NCBI GenBank assembly: GCA_051531975.1
Contig: JAOPTT010000006.1
Coordinates: 656 to 64,655, forward strand
From: Spirochaetaceae bacterium
GTDB lineage: Bacteria > Spirochaetota > Spirochaetia > DSM-2461
Length of the DNA stretch: 64,000 nt
Reading direction: 5' to 3'
In this document: piece by piece, positions 19,833 to 51,788 of the stretch
How the letters are laid out: every line of letters starts with the position of its first letter
How positions within the stretch are numbered: the stretch's first letter is position 1
The notes under the pieces: model-generated
The model's input: only the letters and a program-made list of their open reading frames with translations
The model's database searches: none
What the model was told of the DNA's origin: nothing
Translations under genes and position numbers: made by a program

Positions 19833-19849
19833 TTGGCACAGCTTTTGCA
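19833..19849 (+). promoter_or_regulatory. sigma54 (-24/-12) promoter
   Basis: TTGGCACAGCTTTTGCA, near-consensus TGGCAC-N5-TTGCA. Confidence 0.88.
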
Positions 19850-19878
19850 AATAATAAGTGTAATTATAGGAGATACTT

Positions 19879-21651: not shown

Positions 21652-21660
21652 GAGATATAA

Positions 21661-22170
21661 ATGAGTGATGTTAGCGTATTATTAATTAACCAGTATTTAT
21701 CTTTTACATTAGGCAAAGAAAAATATGGAATAAATATAACAAATGCAAGAGAGGTTCTTGAAGCTACTGAACTGACAAAAGTTCCAAGGATGCCAGAGTT
21801 TATGTGTGGTGTAATCAACTTAAGAGGTAGTGTAGTTCCTGTTATAGATCTTAAGACAAAATTTAAGATGGGTAATACCGATGATAATGAAAAAAATAAT
21901 ATTATCGTTACAGAAATTGATGACCTAGATGATGGAGATGGAAAACTTACAATAGGTATTTATACAGATTCTGTACAAAAAGTCCTTACAATAGAGCCTG
22001 ATGATATAGAGTCTGCACCTAAAATAGGAATTCAGATAAATACAGAATTTATTCATGGTATGGGAAAAGTTAACGATGAGTTTGTCATACTATTAAATAT
22101 TAATAAGATATTAAATAGCAACGATCTTAGTATTATTAATAAAAATAATGATGATGCTGAAGAAGGCTAA
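21661..22170 (+). CDS. cheW: CheW
   Basis: VPRMPEFMCGVINLRGSVVPVIDL. Confidence 0.93.
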   Translation: MSDVSVLLINQYLSFTLGKEKYGINITNAREVLEATELTKVPRMPEFMCGVINLRGSVVPVIDLKTKFKMGNTDDNEKNNIIVTEIDDLDDGDGKLTIGIYTDSVQKVLTIEPDDIESAPKIGIQINTEFIHGMGKVNDEFVILLNINKILNSNDLSIINKNNDDAEEG

Positions 22171-22253
22171 GTATCAAATACAAAAATAGAAGATGTTTTA
22201 TACAACCTATTTATCTGGGTAGTTAATATTTTACTTAAAATTTCAAAACTCTC

Positions 22254-22303
22254 AATTTATTTACACCATATTTGAATTTATATAAATATGGTGTAAATAA
22301 ATT
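22254..22303. repeat. Perfect 20-bp inverted repeat with 10-nt loop (terminator or operator)
   Basis: AATTTATTTACACCATATTT (22254-22273) / AAATATGGTGTAAATAAATT (22284-22303). Confidence 0.8.
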
Positions 22304-22338
22304 TATGGTAAAGGAATTATTTTATAAATTGAGGAAAA

Positions 22339-24210: not shown

Positions 24211-24223
24211 AAAATTAATTTGA

Positions 24224-24279
24224 GCACATTTCTTTGCTTTAACTGCAACATGTTTTGCAGTTAAAGCAAATTTAGTTGC
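24224..24279 (+). promoter_or_regulatory. Candidate upstream activator array (three boxes, 21-bp period), also forming a 16-bp perfect inverted repeat at 24233-24270
   Basis: GCACATTTCTTTGC(24224), GCAACATGTTTTGC(24245), GCAAATTTAGTTGC(24266); last GC is 42 bp before the -24 GG. Confidence 0.7.
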
Positions 24280-24317
24280 ATTTAAATTATTCTAAACCAT
24301 ATATTTTTGACTAATAG

Positions 24318-24334
24318 TTGGCATCAATATTGCA
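24318..24334 (+). promoter_or_regulatory. sigma54 (-24/-12) promoter of che cluster 1
   Basis: TTGGCATCAATATTGCA, GG-N10-GC. Confidence 0.82.
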
Positions 24335-24366
24335 TTCAATAGTTTATTGGTATATAGGAGTTATAA

Positions 24367-26376
24367 ATGAAATTAAAGTCAAAGATTATAATGGGTTTTA
24401 GCACAGTTATTATTATGCTGCTAATCGTAAGCATAGTTGCATTTGTAGCTTTAAGTGGAGCATCTCAAGGTTTCACAGAGTATAGGGGCCTAGCTAGGGA
24501 TACAAACCTTGCAGGAAGACTACAGGCTAATATGTTAATGGTTAGAATGAACGTAAAAGACTATATAATTACTGGAAGTCAAAAAGATCATGACCAGTAT
24601 ACAGATTATGTAGAAAAAATGAATGGATTTTTAGAAGAAGCTCAAGATGAAATACAAAAACCTGAACGAGCAGCCTTAGTAGACGATGTTGATGAAACAG
24701 TAGCATTATATGAATCTTCTTTTGATGAAGTAGTAGACTATAAGTCAGAAAGAGAGGAAATTGTAAATAATAATTTAAATATTAATGGTCCTACAATGGA
24801 AAATAAGCTATCAGAGATTATGGATTCAGCTAATGATGATGGAGATGTTGTAGTTACATATGCAGCCAGCGTTGCAACAAGGCATCTACTTCTTGCTAGA
24901 CTCTATGTTATTAAATATTTAGATAATAACAAAAAAGAGTATGCCGATAGAGTGGATTCTGAAATGAAAATACTTGATGAATATGTTGTTATTTTAAGAA
25001 ATGAGATAGATGATAATCATAGATTAAATCTACTTGTAGAAATGGATGAAATACACTCTGTTTACTGGGATGGATTTAAAAGATTAGTAACTGTAATAAC
25101 AAATAGAAATGATATTATAGATAATCAGTTAGATATCCATGGACCTGAAATTGCTGGTTGGGTTGAAGAAGTAAAGCTTTCAATCAAAGCTGATCAAGAT
25201 ACCTTAGGACCAAAGCTTCAAAGCAGTAATGCATTTTTCATTACTATTGTAGTTGTTGTTTCAATCATAGCTATATTAATTGGAATATTATTAGCACTGT
25301 TTATTACTACTAGTGTTTTAAAACAGTTAGGAGTAGATCCCGCAGAGATTGCAGAAATAGCAACTTCAATTGGAAAAGGTAATTTAAAAATTAACTTTGA
25401 TACAGGAAGAACCCTTGTAGGAGTACATCAATCTTTACATTCTATGGTACAAAAACTACAAGAGGTAGTGCAAAATGTACGGAATAGCTCAAATAATGTA
25501 GCATCTGGTAGTGGTCAACTTAGTGATACAGCAAATCAGATGTCCCAAGGAGCATCGGAACAGGCATCTTCAATCGAAGAGATCTCATCATCTATGGAAG
25601 AGATGGTATCAAATATTAAGCGTAATGCAGACAATTCAGCACAAACTGAAAAAATAGCAAGAAAATCCGCTATAGATGCTGAGAATGGTGGGGATGCTGT
25701 TAATAAAACCGTTGATGCAATGCGTCAAATTGCATCCAAAATAAATATAATTGAAGAGATCGCACGTAATACAAACCTATTAGCACTTAATGCCTCAATA
25801 GAAGCTGCTAGAGCCGGAGAGTACGGTAAAGGATTTGCTGTAGTAGCTTCAGAAGTTGGAAAATTAGCAGAGCGTAGTCAGTTAGCGGCTTCTGAAATAA
25901 ATGAATTAGCAAGTGGAAGTGTTAAGATTGCAGAAGATGCAGGAACTACAATCATGGCTATGATTCCGGATATTCAGCATACCGCAGAGTTAATTCAGGA
26001 AATAAGTGCTTCTAGTAATGAACAAAATTCAGGTGCGGAACAGATAAATCAAGCGATTATGCAGTTAGATAAAGTAATACAACAAAATGCAGCAGTATCT
26101 GAAGAATCATCTTCAATGGCTGAAGAGTTAAGTGGGCAATCTGAATTATTAAAAGAAGTAATAAGTTTCTTCAAAATGTCAAATTTAGATGAAGCCAAGT
26201 ATCAGAATAAAGCTATCTCAGGTATAAATTCTTCAAAATTAAAACCTAAACATAATGATACTGTGCAAAAGAAAATGTCTTTGGATATCAATAAAGGTTT
26301 GGATATTTCCTTAGATGGAGATGAACATTATACAGAGCATAACGATCTTTTAGATAAAGATTATGAGCAATTTTAG
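24367..26376 (+). CDS. MCP with large helical (HBM-like) sensor, pentapeptide DYEQF
   Basis: Two TM helices flanking ~255 aa helical domain; MCP tip. Confidence 0.92.
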
Positions 26377-26385
26377 GAGATATAA

Positions 26386-26895
26386 GTGAGTGATGTCAGC
26401 GAATTATTAATTAATCAGTATTTATCTTTTACATTAGGAAAAGAAAAATATGGAATAAATATAACAAATGCCAGAGAGGTTCTTGAAGCTACTGAACTTA
26501 CAAAAGTTCCAAGAATGCCAGAGTTTATGTGTGGTGTAATTAACTTAAGAGGTAGTGTAGTTCCAGTTATAGATCTTAAGTCCAAATTTAAAATGGGCAA
26601 TACAGGTGACAATGAAAAAAATAATATCATTGTTACCGAAATAGATGAACTTGATGGTGGAGGTGAGAAACTTACTATAGGTATTTACACAGATTCTGTT
26701 CAAAAAGTTCTGACTATTGAACCTGATGATATAGAAGCCGCACCTAAAATAGGTATTCAAATAAATACAGAATTTATTCACGGTATGGGAAAAGTTAACG
26801 ATGAGTTTGTAATCCTGTTAAATATTAATAAGATATTAAATAGTAACGATCTAAATGTTATTAATAATCATGATGATGAAATAGACGAGGAATAA
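26386..26895 (+). CDS. cheW: CheW
   Basis: Near-identical to the 21661 CheW; GTG start. Confidence 0.93.
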   Translation: MSDVSELLINQYLSFTLGKEKYGINITNAREVLEATELTKVPRMPEFMCGVINLRGSVVPVIDLKSKFKMGNTGDNEKNNIIVTEIDELDGGGEKLTIGIYTDSVQKVLTIEPDDIEAAPKIGIQINTEFIHGMGKVNDEFVILLNINKILNSNDLNVINNHDDEIDEE

Positions 26896-26896
26896 G

Positions 26897-27220
26897 ATGC
26901 CAAAAAAAACTGATAATGTTGTTGTAATAACAGATGACTTAATAATTAATCATGTTGATGAAATTAGAGAACTTTTAATAAAAACTTTAAAAAAACAAAA
27001 AAAATTAGAAGTTGTTCTCTCTTCTATTAATAGAATTGATATCTCTGGATTACAACTACTTGTCAGTTTAAGCAATGAAGCCTTTTTAGCAAAAAAAGAA
27101 ATCCTTTATTCTGGTGTATTTAAGGATAGCTTTTTGTTTGATATCAATAAAGTTTCTTTTGCTCAAAATATTTTGACAAATGCAGAGGACTTACAAAATT
27201 TTATAAAGGATGTAGTTTAG
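26897..27220 (+). CDS. STAS domain protein
   Basis: LSSINRIDISGLQLL STAS motif; directly upstream of cheA. Confidence 0.78.
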   Translation: MPKKTDNVVVITDDLIINHVDEIRELLIKTLKKQKKLEVVLSSINRIDISGLQLLVSLSNEAFLAKKEILYSGVFKDSFLFDINKVSFAQNILTNAEDLQNFIKDVV

Positions 27221-27230
27221 AAGGTAAAAT

Positions 27231-29318
27231 ATGGATGAAGTAAATTTTATAAATATATTTAAAGAAGAAGCATTAGAACTCTTAGGGAATTTAGAAGATT
27301 TTCTTCTTGAATTAGAGTCAAATCCAGATGATGAAGAGTTAATATCTGCAGTGTTTAGAGCAATGCATACTGTTAAGGGTTCTGCAGGTATGGTTGGTTT
27401 AAATAATATCTCTACATTTACACATGAAGTTGAATCAATTCTTGAATCAATAAGATCTGGTAAGGCTAAGGTTAATAAGGATTTTATAGATTATACATTA
27501 AAATCTAGGGATATTATATTAACAATGATCAATGATTCAGGATATATATTTCCAGATCAAGATTCATTCTTCTTAGAATTTAAAAAGTCTTTAAATATTA
27601 AGGATGAAGATGAATTAGATAATAATAACAAAGAACCTCAACTAGATAATCAAGAACCAAAAATATATAAAATTACATTTAAACCAGAACCACGAATATT
27701 TTTCTCAGGAACCAACCCTGTAGCATTAGTACATGAAGTTCTTGAATTTGGAGAGGGTATAGTAATTCCCCATTACAAAAAAATTCCATCAATATCAGAA
27801 ATACATACTGAAGAGTGTTATGTTTATTGGGATATCTATGTTTCAACATTAAAAAATATTAATAAAATACAGGAAGTTTTTATATTTATTGATGATCAAT
27901 CTGAATTAATAATTGAAGAATGGAATTTTGATAATGATGAAGAAATACCGGAAAAACTTGGAAATATTTTAGTAAAAAGTGGTAGTATAAATCAGAAAGA
28001 ATTAGACATTGCATTAAAAGCACAATATAAACTTGGAGAAATTCTTGTTAACGAGAGTATGTTATCCGAACATGAAGTTAAAAATGCTTTAAAAACGCAA
28101 AATTTTATAAATAAGAGCAAATCGAATAAGATAGATTTATTAAAGGGTGTTACAGATAATATTAAAGTAAGTTCTAATAAACTTGATAGTTTAATTGATC
28201 TTGTTGGTGAAATTGTAACTATATATGCACAGATGTTACAGATGAGTCACGAATCTAGTGATACAAAACTAATAGCGATTATTGAAAGATTTGGTCTCTT
28301 AACCGAAGAGTTAAGGGATAATTCCATGAGTATGAGAATGTTGCCTATAGGTTCTACATTTTCTAGATTTAGACGTCTTGTCAGAGATTTATCAGGAGAA
28401 TTAGGGAAAAAGATAGAGTTGATAACAGAAGGTGCTGATACAGAACTTGATAAAAATGTAATAGAGCAATTACATGATCCCCTTGTTCATATTATAAGAA
28501 ATTGTATCGACCATGGTATAGAACACCCGGATTTAAGGGTCAAAAACGGTAAAAAGGAAACAGGAACAATAAAGTTGTCTGCAATACATGCAGGAGCATC
28601 TGTACAGATTATAATTGAAGATGATGGTGGTGGTCTAAGTAGAGACAAAATATTAAAAAAAGCTATTTCAAAAGGACTTGTTAAGAGTGATATTGATTAT
28701 TCAGATGAAGAGCTCTTTAACCTTATTTTTTCTCCAGGATTTTCTACTGCTACGAGTATAACTAATGTCTCAGGTAGAGGTGTTGGGCTTGATGTTGTAA
28801 AAAAACAGATAGAACAACTTAAAGGTCATGTCTCTATTACAAGTGAGGAAGGGGTGTATACAAAAATAACCCTGGTATTACCTATAACTCTAGCTATTAT
28901 TGAAGGACTGTTAGTAAAAATTGCTGGAGACTCATATGTTATACCACTAAGCAGTGTTGAAGCCTGTGTTGAATTAAAAAAGGAAAATAAAGATTTTAAT
29001 TCTGGAAAACATGTTATAACTTTTAGGGATAAACTTGTACCGTATATAGATTTAAGAACATTTTTTGATGTTAAAAGTGAGCGTGAATCTATTGAACAAA
29101 TAGTTATTGTTAATTCAAACAGTTCACAGATAGGTCTATTGGTTGATACTGTAGTCGGTGGTAATCAGACTGTTATTAAACCACTTGGTTCAATGTATCA
29201 ACATATAAAAGAGATATCCGGAGCTGCAATTTTAGGTAATGGTTCTGTAGCATTGGTATTTGATATAGAACAACTTGTTAAGGTTGTTCAAGATTTAGAG
29301 GAATGTTATGACATATGA
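27231..29318 (+). CDS. cheA: Chemotaxis histidine kinase CheA
   Basis: Hpt FRAMHTVKG; LIDLVGE; HIIRNCIDHGIE; DDGGG; VSGRGVGLDVV; C-terminal CheW-like domain. Confidence 0.96.
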   Translation: MDEVNFINIFKEEALELLGNLEDFLLELESNPDDEELISAVFRAMHTVKGSAGMVGLNNISTFTHEVESILESIRSGKAKVNKDFIDYTLKSRDIILTMINDSGYIFPDQDSFFLEFKKSLNIKDEDELDNNNKEPQLDNQEPKIYKITFKPEPRIFFSGTNPVALVHEVLEFGEGIVIPHYKKIPSISEIHTEECYVYWDIYVSTLKNINKIQEVFIFIDDQSELIIEEWNFDNDEEIPEKLGNILVKSGSINQKELDIALKAQYKLGEILVNESMLSEHEVKNALKTQNFINKSKSNKIDLLKGVTDNIKVSSNKLDSLIDLVGEIVTIYAQMLQMSHESSDTKLIAIIERFGLLTEELRDNSMSMRMLPIGSTFSRFRRLVRDLSGELGKKIELITEGADTELDKNVIEQLHDPLVHIIRNCIDHGIEHPDLRVKNGKKETGTIKLSAIHAGASVQIIIEDDGGGLSRDKILKKAISKGLVKSDIDYSDEELFNLIFSPGFSTATSITNVSGRGVGLDVVKKQIEQLKGHVSITSEEGVYTKITLVLPITLAIIEGLLVKIAGDSYVIPLSSVEACVELKKENKDFNSGKHVITFRDKLVPYIDLRTFFDVKSERESIEQIVIVNSNSSQIGLLVDTVVGGNQTVIKPLGSMYQHIKEISGAAILGNGSVALVFDIEQLVKVVQDLEECYDI

Positions 29319-30174
29319 TCTTCTAGAAAAAAATATGTCTAATAAAACATTTCAACTTTTCAGAGATTTTATTCAGACACATATTGGAATAACTATAGCT
29401 GACTCTAAAAAAATTATGGTTGAATCTAGGCTGTTAAAAAGATTAAAGGCACTAAACTATACCAACTATAGTGAATATGCTGACTATTTTTTTAGTCCAA
29501 AAGGGCAAATGAATGAATTAGCCAGGTTCATTGAGTGTATAACAACAAATAAAACAGATTTTTTTAGAGAAGTTGAACATTTTAACTTCCTTTCAAACCA
29601 TGTATTACCAGAATTAATAGAAATGAAGTTACATGGAGAAATAAGATTGTGGTCAGGAGCATCATCAACTGGTGAAGAAGCATATACAATGGCTATGTTC
29701 ATGGAAGAGTTCCTTGAAAAACATCCTAGTAATAAATATAAAATTCTAGCTACTGATATTTCAGAAGAAGTGCTAGATAAGGGTCAAAAAGCAATTTATT
29801 CAATTAATGATTGTTATCCAATTCCTATAAATTTCAAAAAAAAATATTGCCTGATGAGTAGAAACCGTGATATTCCCACAATTAGAATTAACAAATATCT
29901 AAGAAAAAAAGTTCTATTTAGACAAATTAATTTAACAGCGGATTCATATATGATAAAAAAACAATATCATGTAATATTTTTGAGAAATGTGATGATCTAT
30001 TTTAATAAGGAGATACAAAGTAAAATCCTTAATAATTTGTATAAACACCTGCACCCTGAAGGATATCTTTTTTTAGGGCATTCTGAAAATTTACCTAATA
30101 CTTCAATTCCTTTTAAAAGGGTGGGCCCCTCAATATATGTAAAAAAGGAGAAAATAATTAATGGACAAAATTAA
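29308..30174 (+). CDS. cheR: CheR methyltransferase
   Basis: [41 protein letters not shown]. Confidence 0.95.
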
Positions 30175-31219
30175 TATAATGATTATTGATGATTCTGCAG
30201 TAGTTCGAGGAGTTTTAACAAAACTAATATCCTCTGAAAAGGATATTAATCTACTGTGTACAGCAGCAGATCCTTATATTGCAGTAAAAAAACTTAGAGA
30301 GATGGTCCCAGATGTAATTATTCTTGATATAGAAATGCCAAGAATGGATGGATTAACTTTTTTAAAAAAACTTATGAGTCAACATCCCATTCCTGTAATT
30401 ATATGCAGTAGTAAAACTGAGGCTGGTTCTGCAAATGTATTAAATGCACTGGAATTCGGAGCTGTGGATATAATTAAAAAACCCCAGATAGGGACAAAAC
30501 AATTTTTAGAAGAGTCTAGAGATTTAATTTGTGATGCTATTAGGGCTGCAAGCCAGACAAATATTAATAAAATAGTTAAGCCTATAGAAGTAACCAAAAA
30601 ATTAAACGCTGATGTTATAATTGCAAAACCTACAACTTTGAACTCTATAGACACAACAGAACAAATAATTGTTGTAGGTGCTTCTACTGGAGGTACAGTA
30701 GCTTTAAAAATATTCCTTGAATCTCTACCATTAGATTCACCAGGCGTTGTTATTGTACAACACATGCCTGAAAACTTTACTGCTGCATTTGCAGAAAGAT
30801 TAAATGAGTCTTGTACCATACAAGTCAAAGAAGCTAAAAACAATGACTCGGTATTAAGAGGTTCTGCTCTAATTGCTCCAGGGAACAAACATACTCTCTT
30901 AAAGAGAAGTGGAAGCAGGTATTATGTTGAAATAGTAGGTGGTCCTTTAGTCTCTAGGCATAGACCCTCTGTTGATGTTTTATTTAGATCTACAGCAAGA
31001 TACGCTGGACAAAATGCCATTGGAGTTATTATGACTGGTATGGGGGATGATGGTGCTCAGGGTTTGCTAGAGATGAAAACAGCTGGATCTTATACTATTG
31101 CCCAGGATGAAAAAAGTTGTGTTGTATTTGGAATGCCTAAAGAAGCAATAAAAAAAGATGCCCACTGTGCTATTGTTCAGCTAAACAATATTTCAAATCA
31201 CATTCTAAGTAAAATATAA
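30161..31219 (+). CDS. cheB: CheB methylesterase (REC-CheB)
   Basis: [29 protein letters not shown]. Confidence 0.96.
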
Positions 31220-31247
31220 TTATATAAAGTAGTGAAGGTTAGTAATA

Positions 31248-32819
31248 ATGAATCTTGAAATTAAAAAATCAACAAACTCAAATATTATTCAAGGTTATCC
31301 ATTGGAAACTGTAAAAAAGCTTGAAATAGGTATAGAAAATAGTCCAGTTTCAATAATTATAACTGATAAAAATGGCTTAATTGAATATGTAAATAGAAAA
31401 TTTTGTACTATAACTGAGTATTGCAAAGAAGAAGTAATAGGAAAAAATCCCAATATCTTAAAAAGTGATTATCATGATGATGAATTTTATAAGTATATGT
31501 GGAAATTAATAAAAAGCGGAAAAGAGTGGAAAGGTATAATAAAAAATAGAAAAAAAAGAGGAGATCTGTTTTGGGAAGAAGCTAATATTACCCCAATTTT
31601 TGGCAGTGATAATATCATAAGTAATTATATATGTACAAAACATGATATATCATTAGAAGTAAAACAAGAACAGGAAATCAAAACTTTAAAGGAAGTTTTA
31701 AAACATAAAAATAAAATAGATGCAGTAGGTCAATTAGCTGGTGTAATTGCACATGATTTTAATAATATATTAAGTGGAATAATAAATTTAGCAGAATTAC
31801 TTAAAATAGGAACAGACAGTTTTAACCAAAAAGAAATTGATTATATAGATCTTATTTTACAATCTGCAGATGACGCAACAAATTTGACACAAATACTGGA
31901 ATCATTAAATAATAGGCTAGATATTAAATTAAAAGAATTAGACATATCAGAATTCTTAGATAATTTTATGGATAGTTTACGTTATACCTTAGAAGATAAA
32001 TATCATATAGAATATATTAATAAATATAGTAGTATTTTTATTAATGGGAATTGTTCTGAATTATTAACTTCTTTAAGTAATATTATTGAAAATGCTACTA
32101 GCTCCATGAAAAATGGTGGTGAAATAACAATAGAATTGGATTTAATAGAATTAGATAAAAAAGAATGCTTAAATTTTATAAATTCTGTCTCTCCTGGTAG
32201 ATATTGTTCTATCTCAATTAGTGATAATGGCCATGGTATTTCTTTAGAAAAAATGCAAAATATTTTTAATCCATTTTTTAAAATAAACTCAAATAAAAAA
32301 TTATCTGGATTAGGTTTATATACAGTAAATGGCTGTTTAAAAGATCATAATGGTGCTGTAAATATAAAAAGTATTTTAGATAAAGGAACTACTGTTACCT
32401 TATACTTTCCAATAACTGATAATAGTGGAAACACCAAAATAGCCCCCCCTAACTATTTATGTAAAACAATCCTATTAGTAGATGATGAAAAAATTAATAG
32501 AATTACGGGGAAAGATTTATTAGAACATATTGGATTTAAAGTTTTGTTAGCGTCTGATGGTGATGAGGCTGTAAAAATATATAGTAAAAAACATTTAAGT
32601 ATTGATTTAGTTTTAATTGATATGGTAATGCCAAAAATGAATGGTTTTGATGCATTTAATGCCATGAAAAATATTGATCATAAATGCAAAGGTATAATTT
32701 TATCAGGATATTTAGATTATGTAAAAATACAAGATTTAATCGATAGCGGTATCTTAGCCATTTTAAGTAAACCTTACAGTATTAATGAACTTGAGCAAGT
32801 AATTAATGAAAATATATAA
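31248..32819 (+). CDS. Cytoplasmic PAS-histidine kinase-REC hybrid
   Basis: PAS (ITDKNGLIEYVN), IAHDFNNIL, DNGHGI, GLGL, C-terminal REC IDMVMP. Confidence 0.88.
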   Translation: MNLEIKKSTNSNIIQGYPLETVKKLEIGIENSPVSIIITDKNGLIEYVNRKFCTITEYCKEEVIGKNPNILKSDYHDDEFYKYMWKLIKSGKEWKGIIKNRKKRGDLFWEEANITPIFGSDNIISNYICTKHDISLEVKQEQEIKTLKEVLKHKNKIDAVGQLAGVIAHDFNNILSGIINLAELLKIGTDSFNQKEIDYIDLILQSADDATNLTQILESLNNRLDIKLKELDISEFLDNFMDSLRYTLEDKYHIEYINKYSSIFINGNCSELLTSLSNIIENATSSMKNGGEITIELDLIELDKKECLNFINSVSPGRYCSISISDNGHGISLEKMQNIFNPFFKINSNKKLSGLGLYTVNGCLKDHNGAVNIKSILDKGTTVTLYFPITDNSGNTKIAPPNYLCKTILLVDDEKINRITGKDLLEHIGFKVLLASDGDEAVKIYSKKHLSIDLVLIDMVMPKMNGFDAFNAMKNIDHKCKGIILSGYLDYVKIQDLIDSGILAILSKPYSINELEQVINENI

Positions 32820-32932
32820 ATGAAAAAAATTGTTATATAAATTGGAAAGTTTATAGGATTAATGAAGGAATAATTAAGTGAGTTTAAGTTGGAATTACCC
32901 CAATGGCATATTTTTAATAAAGGATAAACTTT

Positions 32933-33517
32933 ATGAATAAAAAGTTTTATAGAAAGTCAAATATTAAAACAATTTATTCTGGAGAATACTATGTTACTAA
33001 GAAAAATGAAATAATATCAACTGTACTTGGTTCATGTATCTCCGTATGTTTATACGATAAAGTTAATAATATTTGTGGTATAAATCATTTTATGTTGCCC
33101 AAAAATTCCATTATAAATTTTATTGAAAAACAATATGAATTTAAAAGTGAGTTTTTGAGCAGTAATTCATTACGTTATGGAATAAATTCTATGGAAATAC
33201 TAATAAATAAAATATTAGCTATGGGTGGCGAGAAAAAATACATAACAGCAAAAGTATTTGGTGGGGGAAATGTTATAATACATGATCAAAATAAAAAAAC
33301 TATAGGAGAACAAAATATAGACTTCATATTAGGCTTTTTAAAAGCTGAAAATATTGAAATCTTAAACAAGAATATTGGAGGTTGTATAGGTCGTAAACTT
33401 CTATATAATACTAAAAATAATTCTGTTTATATTAAAAAAATTCCTATCATGAATATAGAGAAAATAGAAGCAAACCCAATCAATATAGAGGCTGCAGGAA
33501 GTATTACAATATTTTAG
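32933..33517 (+). CDS. cheD: Chemoreceptor glutamine deamidase CheD
   Basis: TVLGSCISVCL, GINHFMLP, RYG, AKVFGGG. Confidence 0.93.
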   Translation: MNKKFYRKSNIKTIYSGEYYVTKKNEIISTVLGSCISVCLYDKVNNICGINHFMLPKNSIINFIEKQYEFKSEFLSSNSLRYGINSMEILINKILAMGGEKKYITAKVFGGGNVIIHDQNKKTIGEQNIDFILGFLKAENIEILNKNIGGCIGRKLLYNTKNNSVYIKKIPIMNIEKIEANPINIEAAGSITIF

Positions 33518-33702: not shown

Positions 33703-34068
33703 ATGAAAACTATATTTGCAGTTGACGATTCCGTGACACTAAGAGCTTCTCTCAATTATACACTTACAAAAGCAGGATATGATGTAAAATTAGCCGAGGA
33801 TGGCGTAATAGCATTGGATAAGATATCTAATTATACAGATAAAATTGATTGTTTTCTGTTTGATATCAACATGCCAAATATGGATGGTATAACACTTATT
33901 AAAAAAGTTCGAGAAATTTCAAGGTTTAAATTTACACCAATTTTGTTTCTAACAACGGAAAGTCAGGAATCAAAGAAAATGGAAGGTAAGGCCGCTGGTG
34001 CTTCTGGTTGGATTATTAAGCCCTTTGATCCATTAACATTAATTTCAACGTTAAAAAAATTCGATTAA
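33703..34068 (+). CDS. cheY: CheY-like response regulator
   Basis: VDDS, FDINMPNMDG, FTPILFLTTE, GWIIKPF. Confidence 0.88.
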   Translation: MKTIFAVDDSVTLRASLNYTLTKAGYDVKLAEDGVIALDKISNYTDKIDCFLFDINMPNMDGITLIKKVREISRFKFTPILFLTTESQESKKMEGKAAGASGWIIKPFDPLTLISTLKKFD

Positions 34069-34117: not shown

Positions 34118-35374
34118 ATGATCCAGAAAATAATGGTTTCACTAATTTTATTAATGAATATAATAACTGGGTTTTTATCAAGTTTAATGAAATTTAATTT
34201 ATTCTTAAATATTTTATTATCTTTGACTTTGTTAGTTATTTTATTTTTAAAAAAAGAGAAAATAAAAATAGTCGAGATTGAGAAAGAAATTAATGAGAAA
34301 ATTGTTGTTAAAAAAGAAGAAAGTGTAGAAAACAAAATTATAGACCCGTATGAAACAATTAGACCTAAAACCTGTCATAGTTGTTCCGAGCAAATCTATT
34401 TTATAAAACAGAGTCTGCCTATTATAAAAAAGCTTTCAGAGAATTCACAGAAATTTGAAGAAGAGACTATAGATAGTCTCTTTCGAGATTTTGAAAACAT
34501 ATGGACCGAGAGTGAAACTATAGTAAAACAATCAAAAGATTCTATGAAATCTATATTTGATCCCGGTATTGAAAATAATCTAGGTTATGTATTGAACGCT
34601 TCAAAAGAGATAAATAGTGATTTTTCAAGTTTTATACCAGTATTAAGCGAGATGAACAAGCTTGCAGATAGCTTTATTAAAACCTCTATTGATAGCTTTA
34701 ATACAATTACTAAAACTACAAAAGATATTGTTGAGTTATCGGAGCAGGTTAAAGTTATCTCTATAAATGTTCGAATTGAAGCTGCTAGAGTAAAAGATAG
34801 TGGTGGTTTTAAAGTATTAGGTAATGATATTTCAAATTTTGCTGAAAAAACTGCTAAAGTTGCGAACTCTACTAATCAACAGATAAAAGAAACTTTGTCT
34901 CAAATTAATATTCTCAAGCAGGATCTTTCATTTAAATTAAATAATGTTGAAAATATGGCTAAAAATATATATGTAAAAATATCACCCTTTGAGGACATTT
35001 TAGGATCATCATCTGGTGCGATAATGGGAATTATTAAAAACTTAAATAGTGTATCAAGCAGTCTTCAAAATAATTTAAATAAATCTATTACAAAACTACA
35101 ATACCAGGATATTACTAGTCAGGAATCTGATCATGTGTTGCAATTTTTAGAACATATAGGTGAGTATGGATTTTTTAATAGAGATTTGGGTTTATACCTA
35201 TCAGAAGAGAAAAAAAATGATATTAGAAAAAGTATTATAAATTATTTAGAAGGCATTAGCACCACAAATAATGAAGAAATTGAGATTTTAGCGTTTACTA
35301 ATTTATGGGGGCTTGATATCGATATAAAAAATAGATTAAATATCAAAGCTTCTGATGAGGTAACTCTTTTTTGA
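34118..35374 (+). CDS. Atypical short MCP-like protein with CheZ-like QYQDxxxQ motif
   Basis: N-terminal hydrophobic hairpin; divergent tip ISINVRIEAARVKDSGGF; LQYQDITSQ; ends DEVTLF. Confidence 0.75.
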   Translation: MIQKIMVSLILLMNIITGFLSSLMKFNLFLNILLSLTLLVILFLKKEKIKIVEIEKEINEKIVVKKEESVENKIIDPYETIRPKTCHSCSEQIYFIKQSLPIIKKLSENSQKFEEETIDSLFRDFENIWTESETIVKQSKDSMKSIFDPGIENNLGYVLNASKEINSDFSSFIPVLSEMNKLADSFIKTSIDSFNTITKTTKDIVELSEQVKVISINVRIEAARVKDSGGFKVLGNDISNFAEKTAKVANSTNQQIKETLSQINILKQDLSFKLNNVENMAKNIYVKISPFEDILGSSSGAIMGIIKNLNSVSSSLQNNLNKSITKLQYQDITSQESDHVLQFLEHIGEYGFFNRDLGLYLSEEKKNDIRKSIINYLEGISTTNNEEIEILAFTNLWGLDIDIKNRLNIKASDEVTLF

Positions 35375-42927: not shown

Positions 42928-43290
42928 ATGAAATCGATATTTGCAGTTGATGATAGTTCTACTGTAAGGGCTATGCTGGGGAATGTGTTAATAAAAGCTG
43001 GGTATTCTCTACATTTTGCTGAGGATGGAGTTATAGCTTTAGATATGATTAATAAAAGTTCATATAAAATAGATCTTTTTATATTTGATGTTAACATGCC
43101 TAATATGGATGGTATCGCTCTAATTAAAGATGTGAGAAAAATATCTAAATTTAAATATACTCCAGTTTTGTTTTTAACATCTGAGTCCCAATTAGTTAAT
43201 GAAGGAAAGCTAGCAGGTGCTACTGGTTGGATTGTGAAGCCTATAAATGATGATTTGTTGTTAAGTGTAATTAAAAGATTTATTAAATGA
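42928..43290 (+). CDS. cheY: CheY-like response regulator
   Basis: VDDS, FDVNMPNMDG, GWIVKP. Confidence 0.83.
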   Translation: MKSIFAVDDSSTVRAMLGNVLIKAGYSLHFAEDGVIALDMINKSSYKIDLFIFDVNMPNMDGIALIKDVRKISKFKYTPVLFLTSESQLVNEGKLAGATGWIVKPINDDLLLSVIKRFIK

Positions 43291-43335
43291 AAATTATATA
43301 TTTGTTAAATTAAAATTAATATATTAGGGGATTTT

Positions 43336-45090
43336 ATGAAATTAAGAAAAGTTTTTAATTGGATCATGTTCGTAGCTGTATTATTAACATTAAGTTATGT
43401 TTATATAACTATGTTGAGAAACAATGTAGTTGAAAAAATTGATGAAAAACATAATGAGCGTTTTTTGTCTTTTGCAATCGCTGATGAGTTTAGACAAACA
43501 TCTGCAAATCTGACAAGATTTGCAAGAACATATTCTGCAACAGGTGATCAAAAGTATTGGGATGAGTATTGGGCACTTGTTGGTTGGAGTTCTGGAGAGA
43601 CTCCAAGACCTGATTTTGTCCATTCTGATCTTTATCCAGGAGAAAAAATAAAAGAGTTAGATGTTATGGCTAGGGTTGGCCTAACAGAAGATGAACTTAT
43701 ACAACTTGGTGCGATAATAGGCCTATCAAATGATCTAATATTATTAGAAGATCAAGCTATGCAATCTGTACAATCAGGTACTTTTGTTGATGGACCTGAA
43801 GAGATTTATGAAGATGAAAATATTAATAGTTTTGCAGTAAGAATATTATATGATAAAACATATCATGATGTTATTTATCAGATTATTGAGGAAGTTGATG
43901 CATATATACGTGAATTAGATGTACGAATATTTAATCAACTAAATGTATTAGAAAGCCAAGAAACTTTTATTAATACAATTGCGATGATTATACTCGCGAT
44001 TTTAGTAATTTGTATTTTTTCTCTTATTATATATTTAAATAAATATATCCTAAATAAAGTTCTAGGTGGTGAGCCTGTAACTATTGGAGAAATGGCTAAA
44101 AATATTGCCAAGGGAGATCTTAATATAGATTTAATTCATAAAGATAGTATTGGATTAATGGGCGAAATGGTAACAATGACAAATAACTTCCGTGATGTTG
44201 TTTCTGAAGTTCGAAATAGCTCAAATAATGTTGCTTCAGGCAGTAGCCAACTTAGTGAGACATCTAATCAAATGTCCCAAGGAGCCACTGAACAAGCAGC
44301 TGCTATTGAAGAAATATCATCATCCATGGAAGAGATGGTTTCAAATATAAGACGAAATGCAGATAACTCTATACAAACTGAAAAGATAGCAAGAAAATCT
44401 GCTGTTGATGCAGAAAATGGTGGAAGTGCAGTTAATAAAACAGTCCAAGCTATGAAAGATATCGCATCAAAAATTAATATTATTGAGGAGATTGCTAGGA
44501 ATACAAATCTACTTGCACTAAATGCATCAATTGAAGCAGCTAGAGCAGGTGAATATGGAAAAGGATTTGCAGTTGTTGCATCAGAAGTTGGAAAACTTGC
44601 CGAACGTAGTCAGTTAGCGGCTTCTGAGATAAATGGACTTGCAACAAATAGTGTTCAAATCGCTGAACAAGCTGGAGTTACTATAAACGATATGATTCCA
44701 GATATAATTCATACTGCTGAATTAATACAGGAAATTAGTGCTTCTAGTAATGAACAAAACTCTGGAGCAGAACAGATCAATGCTGCCATAATGCAGCTTG
44801 ATAAAGTTATACAGCAAAATGCGTCTGTTTCTGAGGAATCATCTTCAATGGCAGAAGAGCTTAATGGTCAATCTATGTTACTAAAAGAAGCAATTAGTTT
44901 TTTTAAAGCGGGTAATTCAAATGATACAATTAAAAAAAACCGCGTAGATCATACAACTAAAAGTTTACCTTCTAGACACATTATAAAAGAGCCAAAACAG
45001 AGAGCCAAAGGTGTTAATTTAAAAATGAACGATAGTGAACAATATAGTTTATATGATGATGAATTAGATAGTGACTATGAGGCATTTTAG
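43336..45090 (+). CDS. MCP (sensor paralogous to the 19879 MCP), pentapeptide DYEAF
   Basis: [18 protein letters not shown] sensor; MCP tip. Confidence 0.93.
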
Positions 45091-45099
45091 GAGAATCTT

Positions 45100-45621
45100 A
45101 TGAATGATAATAATGTCCAGGTACTAAATCAGTATTTAACATTTACTTTAAATAATGAAAAGTATGGTATTGATATTGTAAATACCAGAGAAGTTCTTGA
45201 AACCACAGAATTAACAAAAGTTCCTAGAATGCCTGACTTTATGTGTGGTGTTATAAACTTAAGAGGTAGTGTTGTTCCCGTAATTGACCTGAAACTAAAG
45301 TTCAATATGGGGAGTTTAACTGATAATGAGAGAAATAATGTAATTGTAACCGAGATTAATGATCTAGATAGTGGTGACGAGAAACTAACAATTGGTATTT
45401 TTTGTGATTCTGTTCAGAAAGTTTTGACAATTGAACCAGAAAATATAGAGTCCGCCCCAAAGATTGGGATACCAATAAATACGGAGTTTATTCATGGAAT
45501 GGGAAAGGTTAAGGATGAGTTTATAATATTATTAAACATAAATAAAATTCTGACTAGTAAAGATCTTAATCAAATCGTTTCTGATGGTGATGAATCAAAT
45601 GAGGAATCTGATGGCAATTAA
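45100..45621 (+). CDS. cheW: CheW
   Basis: VPRMPDFMCGVINLRGSVVPVIDL. Confidence 0.93.
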   Translation: MNDNNVQVLNQYLTFTLNNEKYGIDIVNTREVLETTELTKVPRMPDFMCGVINLRGSVVPVIDLKLKFNMGSLTDNERNNVIVTEINDLDSGDEKLTIGIFCDSVQKVLTIEPENIESAPKIGIPINTEFIHGMGKVKDEFIILLNINKILTSKDLNQIVSDGDESNEESDGN

Positions 45622-45934
45622 AAAAGGAACAACCATATTATTAGGTAATGAGCTAATTATTGAAGTTATAGACTCTAAAAAATTAGATTTTTTAGAATAT
45701 CTTGAAAAGGGAAATAGTTTTAAAATAGATTTTTCGGAAATAAAAAAAATAGATATTATTGGTCTGCAGTTCATTATTTCTTTTTATAAAGAAGTAACTA
45801 AGGCAGGGAAAAAAATTAAATTTTCTGGTGTTTTTACTGATGAATTTATTGAAGAATTAAACAGCATTATTTTTACTTTGGATAGAATTAATAATACAAA
45901 TGATCTATCCAATCTAATTAAAGAGGTAATTTAG
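45611..45934 (+). CDS. STAS domain protein
   Basis: IDFSEIKKIDIIGLQF; ATG 45611 after GAGGA; paralog of the 26897 gene. Confidence 0.75.
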   Translation: MAIKKGTTILLGNELIIEVIDSKKLDFLEYLEKGNSFKIDFSEIKKIDIIGLQFIISFYKEVTKAGKKIKFSGVFTDEFIEELNSIIFTLDRINNTNDLSNLIKEVI

Positions 45935-45940
45935 AGGTCG

Positions 45941-48001
45941 ATGATGGAAGATGGTAGATTTATACAAATTTTTAAAGATGAGGCACTAGAGCTATTAGGA
46001 CAATTAGAGGACTCTTTATTAGAACTTGAAGCTAGTCCTAAAGACGAGGAGCTTATATCTGCAGTTTTTAGAGTTATGCATACAATAAAAGGTTCGGCTG
46101 GAATGGTTGGCTTAGAAGCTATTTCAGAGTTTACACATGAGGTTGAATCAATATTTGAGGAAATAAGATCTGGTAATATTATTGTCTCAAAAAGTTTTAT
46201 TGATTATACACTAAGATCTAGGGATATAATATTAGAGATGATAAATGATCCAGACTATAGATTTCAAGACTCTGAATCTTTCTTTTCAGGTTTCAAGAAT
46301 TCAATTAACAAAAGAACTGAAATTACTAAAACTGATTTACATCCAAAAACATATAGGATTATATTTAAACCAGATCCTGAAATCTTTTTTACTGGGACAG
46401 ATCCATTAAGAATGATACAAGAAATTCTTGAGCTAGGTGAAGGGGTCGTAATGCCTTTTTACCGTGAGATACCAAAGTTTACTGATTTTATCCCACAGCA
46501 GTGTTATATTTATTGGGAAATTTATCTAACAACTACAGAAAAAATAAATAAAATTCATGATGTTTTTATTTTTTTAAACGAGAAATCTTCTATTACAGTA
46601 GAAGAGTGGAATCATGAAATAGAAGACCCTAATCCTCAGAAACTTGGTCATTTACTTGTTAAAAGTGGACTACTAAAAGATAGTGATATTAATAATGCAC
46701 TCGATAAGCAGCCAATGCTTGGTGAAATTCTTATAAAAAAAGATATTTTAACTAAACATGAGGTGAAAAATGCATTAAAGGCTCAATCATATATAAACGA
46801 AAAGAAAAGTAACAAAGTAGAAACTAAAATATCAAATAGTTTAAGAATAAATTCTAATAAGCTTGATAGTCTTATAGATTTAGTTGGTGAAATTGTAACT
46901 ATTTATGCTCAAATGTTACAAATGAGTCATGAATCAGAGGATTCAAAGCTAGTATCTATAATAGAACGATTTGGTATGTTAACAGAAGATCTAAGGGATA
47001 CTTCCATGAGTATGCGCATGGTACCAATTGGTTCTACATTTTCAAGGTTCAAAAGGTTAGTTAGAGATCTTTCTGGTGAACTTGGGAAAAAAATTGAACT
47101 TGTTACTGAGGGAGCTGAAACAGAACTTGATAAAAATGTGATAGAGCAACTTAATGAGCCTTTAGTACATATAATTAGGAATTGTATAGATCATGGTATA
47201 GAAAGTCCTGAAATCAGAACCAAGAATGGAAAAAGTGAATCAGGTGTAATAAAATTAAGTGCGATTCATTCTGGAACAACAGTTCAAATCGTTATTGAAG
47301 ATAATGGTGGCGGATTAAGTAGAGATAAAATATATAATAAAGCCATTTCTCGAGGATTAATACAAAAAACTGATGAGATATCTAATAAAGATCTTTTTAA
47401 CTTAATTTTTGCACCAGGATTTTCTACTGCTGAAAATATTACAAAGGTTTCAGGTAGAGGTGTTGGACTTGATGCTGTAAAAAAACAGATAGAATTACTT
47501 AAAGGTCATGTATATATAGATAGTAAAGAAGGTGAGTTTACAAAATTTACTCTTGTTTTACCAATAACTTTAGCTATAATCGAAGGCCTTTTAGTTCAGA
47601 TTGAAAAAGAGTCTTTTGTAATTCCACTTGGAGCAGTGGAAGCTTGTGTTGAGTTAATGGATGAAAACAAAGACTTAAAGTCTGGTCGAAATGTAATAAC
47701 TTTTAGAGATAAATTAGTTCCATATATTGATCTAAGAAAATTTTTTAGTATTAAAAGTCAAAGGCAGACAATTGAGCAAATAGTAATTGTTAATTCAAAT
47801 CATCGTCAGATTGGATTACTTGTTGATAGCGTAATAGGAAGTCATCAAACTGTTATCAAATCACTCGGAAATATGTATCGAGGAGTACAAGAGATCTCAG
47901 GAGCAGCGATTTTAGGTAATGGTTCAGTTGCTTTAGTTTTTGATGTGGAGAAACTTGTTAGAGTAGTTGAAAAAACAGAAAGTATTTATGCTATTACATA
48001 A
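45941..48001 (+). CDS. cheA: CheA (second paralog)
   Basis: FRVMHTIKG, HIIRNCIDHGIE, VSGRGVGLD. Confidence 0.96.
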   Translation: MMEDGRFIQIFKDEALELLGQLEDSLLELEASPKDEELISAVFRVMHTIKGSAGMVGLEAISEFTHEVESIFEEIRSGNIIVSKSFIDYTLRSRDIILEMINDPDYRFQDSESFFSGFKNSINKRTEITKTDLHPKTYRIIFKPDPEIFFTGTDPLRMIQEILELGEGVVMPFYREIPKFTDFIPQQCYIYWEIYLTTTEKINKIHDVFIFLNEKSSITVEEWNHEIEDPNPQKLGHLLVKSGLLKDSDINNALDKQPMLGEILIKKDILTKHEVKNALKAQSYINEKKSNKVETKISNSLRINSNKLDSLIDLVGEIVTIYAQMLQMSHESEDSKLVSIIERFGMLTEDLRDTSMSMRMVPIGSTFSRFKRLVRDLSGELGKKIELVTEGAETELDKNVIEQLNEPLVHIIRNCIDHGIESPEIRTKNGKSESGVIKLSAIHSGTTVQIVIEDNGGGLSRDKIYNKAISRGLIQKTDEISNKDLFNLIFAPGFSTAENITKVSGRGVGLDAVKKQIELLKGHVYIDSKEGEFTKFTLVLPITLAIIEGLLVQIEKESFVIPLGAVEACVELMDENKDLKSGRNVITFRDKLVPYIDLRKFFSIKSQRQTIEQIVIVNSNHRQIGLLVDSVIGSHQTVIKSLGNMYRGVQEISGAAILGNGSVALVFDVEKLVRVVEKTESIYAIT

Positions 48002-48032
48002 AATAGATAATGCAATTTATAGAGGTATTAAA

Positions 48033-48866
48033 ATGTCCTCTGTAGATTTTAGTAAAATTCAGAATTATATTGGTGATACTATAGGAATCAATATTCCTTT
48101 AACAAAAAAATTAATGGTTGAAACAAGATTATTAAAAAGATTAAAAGCTCTAAAAATGACTAATTATGATGAATATACAAAGTACCTATTTAGCAAAGAA
48201 GGTCAAAGTATTGAAATACCTAGGTTTATAGACTGTATTACTACTAATAAAACTGATTTTTTCAGAGAGGAAGATCATTTTGATTTTTTAGTTAAAAATG
48301 TTTATCCAGATCTGATTAAAAAATTTAGATTTAAAGAGATAAATTTATGGTCTGCAGCAGCTTCAACAGGGGTTGAAGCATATACTATTGCAATGATTAC
48401 AGATAATTATCTACTAAATTATTCAGGAATTAATTTTAATATTCTTGCTTCTGATATATCTGAACAGGTTTTAAATATTGGAAAAAGGGCTGTTTATTCT
48501 ATCGAAGATTGTAAGCCCATCACAGGAATATTTAAAAAAAGGTATTGTCTTATTAGTAAAGATAAAGAAAAACCAACTGTAAGGATAAAAAAATATTTGA
48601 GACAAAAAGTTAATTTTAATATTATTAATCTAATTGATGACAACTATGAAATTGAAAAATTATATCATGTTATTTTTCTAAGAAATGTGATGATTTATTT
48701 TAATATGGAGACACAACTTTCAATTCTAAAAAAGTTATATAAATATTTACATCCAGAAGGTTATCTATTTTTAGGGCACTCAGAAAAGGTTCCTGAAAGT
48801 TTATCATTATTTAAAAGGGTTGGACCTTCAATATACGTAAAAAAGGAGAAAACTTTTAATGGATAA
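48033..48866 (+). CDS. cheR: CheR (second paralog); alternative start 47988
   Basis: [38 protein letters not shown] before ATG 48033. Confidence 0.93.
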
Positions 48867-49932
48867 TATAATTAAAATAATGATTGTTGATGATTCTGCT
48901 GTTGTCCGTAGTACATTTGCAGAGATAATATCTAATGAGAAGGATATTGATATATTATCTACAGCTGCTGATCCATATATCGCTGCAAAGAAACTACAAG
49001 AAAATATACCAGATGTTATCATCCTTGATATAGAAATGCCAAGAATGGATGGACTCACTTTTCTAAAGAAACTTATGTCTCAATATCCTATCCCAGTAAT
49101 AATTTGTAGCAGTAAAAGTGAAAAAGGATCAACAAATGCCATTAGAGCTTTAGATTATGGCGCTGTTGATATTATTCAGAAACCTCAAGTTGGAACAAAA
49201 GTATTTTTAGAAGAATCTAGAAAGTTAATCTGTGATTCTATTAGAGCTGCGAGTTTAGTAAAATCAAAAAAAGTAGTAGTACCTATTACTGTTACACCAA
49301 AACATAGTGCCGATGTTATAATGTCAAAGCCGATTAATAATAGATCAATCGAAACTACAGAGAAATTAATAGTTGTAGGAGCATCCACAGGTGGTACGGT
49401 GGCATTGAAGGTTTTTTTAGAGCAACTACCACTTGATTCTCCTGGTATTGTTATCGTTCAGCATATGCCTGAAAAATTCACAGAACAGTTTGCTAAAAGA
49501 TTAAATGAAACTTGTACAATTACAGTTAAAGAAGCAAAAAATAATGATTCAATATTAAGGGGTACAGCTCTGATTGCACCTGGTAATAAACATGTTTTAC
49601 TTAAAAGAAGTGGTAGTAGATATTATGTCGAACTTAATAATGGACCATTAGTATCTAGGCACAGGCCTTCGGTTGATGTTCTATTTAGATCAACAGCAAG
49701 ATATGCAGGTAGTAATGCTATAGGAATAATTATGACTGGTATGGGGGATGATGGTGCAGAAGGTCTATTAGAGATGAAAAATTCTGGAGCTTATACTGTA
49801 GCTCAGGATGAAAAAAGTAGTGTTGTTTTTGGAATGCCAAAAGAGGCCATAAAAAGGAATGCTCATTGTAAGATTATGGAACTAGATGCAATTGCTAAAC
49901 ATATAATGTCTAAGTTTAAGGTAATGATATAA
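48859..49932 (+). CDS. cheB: CheB (second paralog)
   Basis: [29 protein letters not shown]. Confidence 0.96.
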
Positions 49933-50103: not shown

Positions 50104-50469
50104 ATGAAAACAATATTTGCAGTAGATGACTCTGTTACTATAAGATCAACACTTAGCTATACCCTCACTAATGCAGGATTTGATGTACAATTAGCCGAAG
50201 ATGGTGTAATAGCTTTAAAGAAATTAGAGACATTCACAGATAAGATAGATGCTTTCCTCTTTGATGTTAATATGCCCAATATGGATGGCTTAACATTGAT
50301 TAAAAAAGTACGTGAATTACCAAAATATAAGTTTACACCTATATTATTTCTGACTACAGAAACTCAAGCCTCAAAAAAAATAATAGCTCAAGAAGCTGGA
50401 GCAACAGGGTGGATAGTTAAACCTTTTGATGCAGATGTTTTAATTTCTACATTAAAAAGATTTATTTAG
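50104..50469 (+). CDS. cheY: CheY-like response regulator (paralog of 33703)
   Basis: VDDS, FDVNMPNMDG, FTPILFLTTE, GWIVKPF. Confidence 0.88.
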   Translation: MKTIFAVDDSVTIRSTLSYTLTNAGFDVQLAEDGVIALKKLETFTDKIDAFLFDVNMPNMDGLTLIKKVRELPKYKFTPILFLTTETQASKKIIAQEAGATGWIVKPFDADVLISTLKRFI

Positions 50470-50537: not shown

Positions 50538-51788
50538 GTGATCAGAATCACGATTTTATTGTTGATTATAACTTTAAATGTTGTTGGTATATTTTTTAAC
50601 AATTTTACAAATATCACATCTATATTATCTATATTAATGGTTTTGTATCTTTTTTATGTAACAAGAAATAGAAAGAATATGTCTGAACAACCTATAGAAA
50701 AAGAAATTGTTGAATTAGAAATTAATACACCTAAAGATGATATATCTGAAGTTATTATAGAAGATAAATCTGAGATAGATTCAAATAACCAATATTCAGA
50801 AAATTTCTTTTATATTAAAGAGTGCCTTCACGTTATTGAAAACTTATCAATTAATACTAGGAAGTTTGAAGAAGATACTCTTCAATCTCTTTTTAAAGAA
50901 TTTGAAGAAATTTGGTCGGAAAGTGAAGTTATTGTTAGAGATACTAAGGAATCTATGAAATCCATATTTGATGCTAATTCCAAGGATAATCTAGCATATG
51001 TTCTAAATACTTCCAAAGAAATAAATAATGATTTCACCAATTTTATTCCAGTTTTAAACGTTATGAATAATGTAGCTGATAAATTTATCCAAACATCAAT
51101 AGAGAGTTTTGATACAATTACAAAAACGACTAAAGATATTGTTGATTTAGCTGAACAGGTTAAAGTTATTTCGATAAATGTTAGAATTGAAGCTGCAAGG
51201 GTGAAGGATAGTGGTGGTTTTAAAGTATTAGGTAATGACATATCAAATTTTGCTGAAAGAACTTCTAAGGTTGCATTATCAACGAATGAGCAGATAAAAA
51301 CGACTATGCAGGTCATAGATAGTTTGAAATCTGAACTGTCACAGCAATTAGATAGTGTTAAAAATCAAGCTCAGTCTATATTTGCAAAAGTTTCTCCTTT
51401 TGAAAAAATACTATACTCGTCTTCAGAATCTGTAATGGATGTAATAAAAAAACTTAATATTATATCAGGAGAACTTCAATCAAATCTTAGGAATTCAATA
51501 TCTAAATTACAATATCAGGACATAACAAACCAAGAATCAGATCATTTAATTCAAATATTAAAACAGATTGAAAAAGTAGAATTATCTAATTTAAATTTTG
51601 ATGAAACATTAACAATGGAAAAAAAGAAAGATATTAGAGAAAGAATAATTAATTATTTAAAGGATATAAGTACTACATCAAATGAAGAAAATGAAGTTGA
51701 AAGACTAGCAAAACAATGGGGTGTTCGTATTGTTGTAGATACAAGAAAACCTGGAAAAGAGAATGATGATGGTGTTATCTTATTTTGA
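50538..51788 (+). CDS. Atypical short MCP-like protein with CheZ-like motif (paralog of 34118)
   Basis: ISINVRIEAARVKDSGGF; LQYQDITNQ; ends DGVILF. Confidence 0.75.
   Translation: MIRITILLLIITLNVVGIFFNNFTNITSILSILMVLYLFYVTRNRKNMSEQPIEKEIVELEINTPKDDISEVIIEDKSEIDSNNQYSENFFYIKECLHVIENLSINTRKFEEDTLQSLFKEFEEIWSESEVIVRDTKESMKSIFDANSKDNLAYVLNTSKEINNDFTNFIPVLNVMNNVADKFIQTSIESFDTITKTTKDIVDLAEQVKVISINVRIEAARVKDSGGFKVLGNDISNFAERTSKVALSTNEQIKTTMQVIDSLKSELSQQLDSVKNQAQSIFAKVSPFEKILYSSSESVMDVIKKLNIISGELQSNLRNSISKLQYQDITNQESDHLIQILKQIEKVELSNLNFDETLTMEKKKDIRERIINYLKDISTTSNEENEVERLAKQWGVRIVVDTRKPGKENDDGVILF

Follow-up and report, generated by a model that had tools for sequence, protein, structure and literature searches.

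A sensor-less, receptor-shaped protein with a CheZ-type motif as a candidate array-docked CheY-P phosphatase in a spirochaete

How is the chemotaxis signal ended by a gene cluster that encodes no recognised CheY phosphatase? To our knowledge, che clusters without cheZ, cheC and cheX have no known way to do so. Two such clusters lie in the window, the stretch of 64,000 nucleotides of a Spirochaetaceae bacterium analysed here (GenBank assembly GCA_051531975.1, contig JAOPTT010000006.1, positions 656 to 64,655 of the forward strand), and in each the gene after cheY encodes a receptor-shaped rod that lacks a sensor. The analysis suggests that this rod is probably a CheY-P phosphatase docked in the receptor array.

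Two che clusters and their McpA-like genes

The features of the window on which the argument draws are as follows.

24367..33517, plus strand: rest of cluster 1 (mcp, cheW, STAS, cheA, cheR, cheB, hybrid kinase, cheD), with no cheZ, cheX or cheC
33703..34068, plus strand: cheY of cluster 1, candidate substrate (Pfam, conserved residues)
34118..35374, plus strand: McpA-like protein of 418 aa with a CheZ-type Q-x2-D-x3-Q motif (sequence, Pfam, alignment, AlphaFold2)
34121..34249, plus strand: hydrophobic helical hairpin, residues 2-44, predicted membrane anchor without periplasmic sensor (sequence, model helices)
34418..34471, plus strand: segment at the position of P-x5-L-x2-V-x3-TE-x-A, weakly like CheZ 49-66 (E 0.002-0.006, from distant members)
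34757..34831, plus strand: divergent MCP signalling tip (Pfam, conservation, fold searches)
35096..35122, plus strand: LQYQDITSQ, with Q328, D331 (CheZ D143) and Q335 (CheZ Q147) (alignment, hhalign, helix phase)
35261..35275, plus strand: T-T-x2-E element (T382, E386), for which the tail profile found no CheZ counterpart (alignment, tail profile)
35354..35371, plus strand: acidic-hydrophobic tail DEVTLF (alignment, tail patterns)
42928..49932, plus strand: rest of cluster 2 (cheY-like, mcp, cheW, STAS, cheA, cheR, cheB), with no cheZ, cheX or cheC
50104..50469, plus strand: cheY of cluster 2 (Pfam)
50538..51788, plus strand: paralog of 416 aa, 52% identical to the 34118..35374 product (tip 51168-51242, motif 51507-51533, tail 51768-51785)

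The cluster order is mcp-cheW-STAS-cheA-cheR-cheB-(kinase-cheD)-cheY-McpA-like gene, which we take to be F8-like. A preliminary description of this DNA had placed both McpA-like genes directly after cheY in clusters with no recognisable cheZ, cheX or cheC. The absence is borne out, there being no Pfam match to any of the three over its cut-off in either cluster; the position holds for both window copies (gaps of 49 bp after cheY 33703-34068 and 68 bp after cheY 50104-50469, the paralog starting with GTG) but is a local feature, as relatives adjoin cheA, cheR or cheB or precede cheY. The CheY encoded at 33703 has D54, N56, T84, E86 and K106, which are invariant among 85 close homologues. A CheY-like gene at the head of cluster 2 (42928-43290), at 62% to this CheY, is a further candidate substrate. 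Upstream of cluster 1, five MCP genes (8444-11029 and 17680-26895) whose signalling domains are nearly identical, together with recurrent mcp-cheW pairs, point to local duplication.

The AlphaFold2 model of the 418-aa protein (137-sequence alignment, mean pLDDT 85.8, pTM 0.53) agrees with the claim of a hydrophobic N-terminal hairpin with almost no periplasmic domain, placing helices at residues 2-17 and 21-44 around a 3-residue loop; there follow a disordered linker (48-75), a single long hairpin (85-349), three short helices and a low-confidence tail. The divergent MCP tip is likewise present, with a borderline Pfam MCPsignal (PF00015) score of 34.7 bits against a cut-off of 34.6, the paralog falling just under at 30.2 bits. 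No sensor or HAMP domain was found in the window proteins (Pfam, E<=0.1). LQYQDITSQ and DEVTLF were both located as claimed, and the paralog keeps the tip, LQYQDITxQ and a DxVxLF tail.

Elsewhere in the host genome (G000), no protein exceeds the Pfam cut-off for CheZ; 8 CheX and 2 CheC proteins exceed theirs, none of them encoded within either window cluster. The 8 CheX genes, which could act in trans, lie on contigs C4, C6 and C9, several adjoining CheA-like kinases and none in the four clusters studied. A third paralog (423 aa; C12:94374-95645, L002) stands upstream of cheR rather than after cheY and is convergent on a cheA-cheY-mcp-cheW-cheB operon. A fourth, long-type relative (613 aa; C1:171662-173503, L038:6663-8504, minus strand), just before cheY-cheA-cheD, has LQKQDIIHQ, a degenerate tip, a second tip-like segment and the tail GSDITFF. 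All four similar clusters of the host genome carry one motif-bearing gene each and neither cheX nor cheC, and its cheA-cheW-cheX cluster carries no motif-bearing gene. Relatives occupy che clusters or their borders at 10 of 11 loci, the eleventh being an orphan from a genome of the same genus (L030:10339-11610), which no che gene accompanies within 20 kb. The exclusion of other phosphatases is not strict, since three genomes of one genus (L032, L034, L035) keep in one cluster both a motif-bearing gene and, after cheY, an ExxN-bearing CheX-like gene. The named homologues are spirochaetal.

The conserved motif and its likeness to CheZ

CheZ is the enzyme that switches CheY off; in its chemistry an Asp positions CheY-P and a Gln orients the attacking water. 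Its catalytic motif is DxxxQ (PMC7750401). In the McpA-like family, D-x3-Q is preceded by F/Y-Q, as in CheZ, and Y329, D331 and Q335 stand in register with F141, D143 and Q147 of the E. coli enzyme. Across 168 aligned homologues (drawn from 28 close hits and the best 150 of a profile search, two duplicates dropped), Q328 and D331 are present in all and Q335 in 167, figures that come from sequences selected with profiles containing the motif, many of them kin rather than independent. The MCP tip is less conserved (N217 in 165, E221 in 162), and H339 (155), T382 (143), E386 (159) and F418 (146) are further conserved positions. The distance from tip to Asp is 110-111 residues in 138 of the 162 sequences in which both patterns were found. 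A DxxxQ lying 105-121 residues past the tip occurs in just one of 48 other tip-bearing ORFs of the host genome, so the position of the motif is more than chance.

Of 301 genomes of the phylum, 28 hold the family by its C-terminal profile. Outside the host genome Q-x2-D-x3-Q is found at 28 of 28 loci (the match printed for L091 being a second, non-homologous one), 21 of which have a che gene or MCP within a short flank. A 134-codon open frame with LQFQDITRQ and no MCP tip (L089:1387-1791), flanked by cheD-cheY-cheX-like and cheY-cheX-like genes, may be a natural tip-less form or a split gene.

The motif residues are predicted to face outward on their helix, with a phase that matches CheZ: Q328 and Q335 point 160 degrees and D331 108 degrees from the hydrophobic face, compared with 165 degrees for D140 and Q147 and 143 degrees for D143 of CheZ. 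Non-conservation or burial of the D and Q had been named as grounds for rejecting a phosphatase; both residues are conserved and, by this prediction, outward-facing.

The HMM-HMM comparison with CheZ that had been proposed supports the likeness: hhalign gave 71.6% (E 3.5e-5, 56 columns) for the 89 most distant members against 6 beta/gamma CheZ sequences, versus 0.8% for 13 canonical MCPs. Pfam CheZ (PF04344) matched 46 of the 89 members at E<=0.01 and at most 1 of the 13 canonical MCPs (25 of 31 families listed), with every family score under the 30.7-bit cut-off (13.5 bits for 34118-35374, 18.1 for the paralog and 30.5 for the best locus-derived member). A profile of residues 288-418 built without CheZ scored E. 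coli CheZ at 14.6 bits and the best non-family ORF or shuffle at 6.3; in the whole set of 5,489 genome ORFs, 500 shuffles and two added proteins, CheZ came sixth, with only family members ahead. Other searches returned no CheZ: a 15-sequence C-terminal profile missed 1KMI in the PDB at E<=10 (22 chance hits, none of them CheZ), none of 7 matches of the C-terminal profile among short proteins was marked CheZ, and residues 285-415 of a homologue (P0292) matched 30 Pfam-less ESM Atlas clusters with no CheZ among them. The clusters of about 121-131 aa (best three listed) that resemble this region are fragments or stand-alone forms. In plasmids, tblastn with the window protein, P0142 and the C1 protein gave no match. 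On CheZ the fold searches were uninformative, the query being a helical rod: CheZ was absent among the Foldseek matches listed, and VIA-align placed 1kmi_Z (rank 49, Z 9.4, rmsd 5.7, 143 aligned) out of register among generic hairpins.

On the partner helix, which in a CheZ core would correspond to residues 49-74, the pattern of the segment at 34418..34471, as measured in distant members, matches CheZ 49-66 weakly and in register; with a narrow N-helix profile against E. coli CheZ alone the match fails (rank 323). The ends of an alignment to 3g67 place residue 113 near residue 331 in the model hairpin, so that the second CheZ-like segment would sit across from the D/Q motif. The arrangement suggests a CheZ core whose own hairpin is replaced by the MCP tip. 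Prediction of the complex (2 x residues 84-418, 2 x CheY, Mg) scored 0.47, 0.51 and 0.56, with 0.00 for partner-replaced controls but 0.67 for CheY with an unrelated protein, and is given no weight here.

The tail is another matter. It had been likened to the CheY-binding C-terminal peptide of CheZ, a 15-residue helix (10.1101/607010), and this part of the proposal fell: among 137 tails pre-selected for a final F, L or W, none has a CheZ-like ending and 132 end in [VIFT]x[LFIMV]F, and the C-terminal tail profile does not find CheZ. The usual tail is missing at 10 of the 28 loci outside the host genome; members at L088-L097, adjoining cheY and often cheA too, keep the motif without a VxLF tail. 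Two of the four CheD proteins of the host genome end similarly (GSITIF, window 32933-33517; SDITLF, C1:168293-168877), and the CheD of a Vibrio cluster ends DDDVELFG. A docking partner common to the CheD and McpA-like tails is possible. The earlier view of an MCP-CheZ hybrid is thereby kept in part, with conservation, CheZ register, outward face and profile against control speaking for it and a tail that is not of the CheZ type speaking against it.

Proposed function and the alternatives to it

Judged by sequence, the family is already known, since the same motif is found in a Vibrio gene in the McpA/CttP slot of an F7 cluster and in a BB0569-family protein. On the family profile the Vibrio aquimaris protein (L037), encoded in the mcpA slot of a cluster with the stage-1 F7 order published by Ortega et al., reaches 155.6 bits (Aer2, 99.6), and it has LQFTDIIVQ 111 residues past the tip and the end EVEFF; the tie to P. 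aeruginosa PA0180 and V. cholerae VCA1088 runs through this gene order and profile match. Two further genomes (G179, G144) encode, between cheB and cheY, a protein with LQFQDRLTQ and the end EGSVILF, and that of G179 belongs to the BB0569 family (NCBIfam NF052273, 1115 bits, cut-off 1000). NF052273 does not match the window proteins, nor the 613-aa C1 protein over 1000 bits; only motif and tail are common. Homologues of the C1 protein occur in 18 of 300 other genomes, all of one family, with cheY adjacent in 17 of the 18; this long subfamily has lost the canonical tip and keeps D, Q, H, T, E and the final F in 19 of 19 members.

We propose that the protein dimerises into a four-helix bundle, that its MCP tip would dock on CheA/CheW, and that the CheZ core would be rebuilt, some 110 residues along the rod from the tip, by the C-terminal helix together with the partner helix P101-E115, the MCP hairpin standing as if in place of CheZ's own. 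D331 would position CheY-P and Q335 would orient the attacking water, while the VxLF tail, being flexible, may serve to hold a partner; the signal would thus be terminated within the array itself. As substrate, the CheY of the same cluster is the most likely. It may also be the CheY of another array, a reading kept in view because McpA is reported in another system's array. TlpC is encoded with one array and located in another (PMC6829392).

The best of the other explanations, unlikely in our estimation, is a non-catalytic array scaffold or bridge whose Q/D/Q/H stripe would bind CheY or some other che protein but not hydrolyse phosphate. CheX does co-occur in some clusters, and loss of BB0569 reportedly disturbs receptor clustering in the work of Zhang et al. 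P. aeruginosa McpA is dispensable for the F7 array, is associated with the F6 array and has been proposed to bridge the two (PMC7184735, 10.1101/653600). Chemotaxis in vitro depends on bb0569 but not on two other genes of that operon, cheW2 and cheY2 (PMC10703414), as would suit a structural role or a different substrate. A pure scaffold, however, does not predict that the two CheZ catalytic positions should be more nearly invariant than the tip itself, nor that D and Q should be kept where the tip decays, as they are in the long subfamily; F7 arrays, moreover, are intact after McpA deletion (PMC7184735).

That the motif is a docking or substrate site for CheD or for CheB/CheR, with the tail as a tether for the enzyme, is improbable. 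The invariant glutamines on the outer helix face, the frequent adjacency of cheR and cheD and the likeness of CheD tails to the family tail would suit such a site. Against it, Q335 is followed by E in only 81 of the 168 homologues, and the methylation-site consensus of MCPs includes no invariant Asp. The CheR pentapeptide fits just 4 of the 137 tails, and that of McpA binds none of four CheR proteins (PMC7184735). A pattern for the methylation consensus proved too strict to tell, being found in 2 of 137 members but also in just 4 of 13 canonical MCPs. Least probable is an ordinary receptor that, lacking a ligand domain, reads a cue from the membrane or the cytoplasm, its CheZ likeness a coiled-coil coincidence, for although the top fold matches of the model are chemoreceptors (Foldseek, VIA-align), CttP/McpA is listed for chloroethylene taxis (PMC9864684) and one canonical MCP (L003) weakly matches Pfam CheZ outside the motif, none of the profile, Pfam and positional controls reproduces the likeness in canonical MCPs, sensor and HAMP domains were not found by Pfam, and the tip is degenerate in the long subfamily.

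Phosphatase action from within the array is the reading we retain as the most probable, and its two-residue (D/Q) prediction makes it testable. A broader proposal, which we hold to be evenly balanced between right and wrong, is that McpA/CttP, BB0569 and the spirochaete proteins form one overlooked superfamily of receptor-rod CheZ-type phosphatases; CheZ and the MCP signalling domain would have a common four-helix core, with the MCP tip at the CheZ hairpin site. Such proteins would provide F7 stage 1-2 and F8-like systems with the signal terminator they are missing, would have given way to free CheZ towards E. coli, and may link two systems, docked in one array while draining the other's CheY. 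Were the phosphatase reading borne out, the long-puzzling McpA and BB0569 proteins, which share the motif, would be explained, the 'atypical receptor' of Pseudomonas, Vibrio and Borrelia would be reassigned to an enzyme role, CheZ chemistry would extend to spirochaetes and the origin of CheZ would be tied to the receptor fold.

A full-text literature search of incomplete coverage, which leaves an earlier mention possible, found no paper giving McpA or BB0569 a DxxxQ motif or a phosphatase role, and the available text of 10.1101/2022.05.07.491037, PMC11253619, PMC12887009, PMC9864684 and 10.1101/2023.01.06.523011 contains no statement of the motif.

Comparison with known systems

McpA-like proteins (P. 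aeruginosa PA0180/CttP, V. cholerae VCA1088) have, like the window proteins, a predicted membrane anchor, no sensor and a conserved C-terminus without the CheR pentapeptide x[HFYW]xx[HFYW]; the role of that C-terminus is called unclear in print, and their co-evolution with F7 is put down to an 'important yet unclear' cause (PMC7184735). In proteobacteria the mcpA-bearing F7 stages have no cheZ, and mcpA is lost at stage 3 while the F6 cheY/cheZ pair is kept (PMC7184735), a pattern that we infer to be tied to phosphatase function. The family is given as confined to F7 systems in the available text of PMC7534058, which names no catalytic motif for it. The window proteins differ in being spirochaetal, in standing after cheY, and in their more divergent tip and longer C-terminal region.

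The BB0569 family shares the motif and the tail, as in the G179 protein (LQFQDRLTQ, end DEGSVILF), encoded just before cheY, and by profile the C1 protein belongs with this long type. Its members differ in their length of about 590-650 aa, in the N-terminal membrane hairpin, of which none was seen, and in the degenerate tip. Canonical MCPs (PF00015) share the tip motif and hairpin fold, whereas the window proteins lack sensor and HAMP domains and carry DxxxQ at a position where other tip-bearing ORFs of the host scarcely have it.

With CheZ (PF04344, PDB 1KMI), the window protein family shares a long amphipathic helix whose outer face bears F/Y-Q-D-x3-Q in register, a weak second match on the partner helix, a flexible linker and a hydrophobic tail with a final Phe. 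Unlike CheZ, it has an MCP hairpin of about 136 additional residues separating the two segments, a membrane-type anchor, the T-T-x2-E element, a sub-cut-off Pfam score and a short VxLF tail in place of the 15-residue C-helix (10.1101/607010). By sequence, then, the window protein appears CheZ-like, falls outside CheZ by score and tail, and is a relative of McpA/CttP and BB0569.
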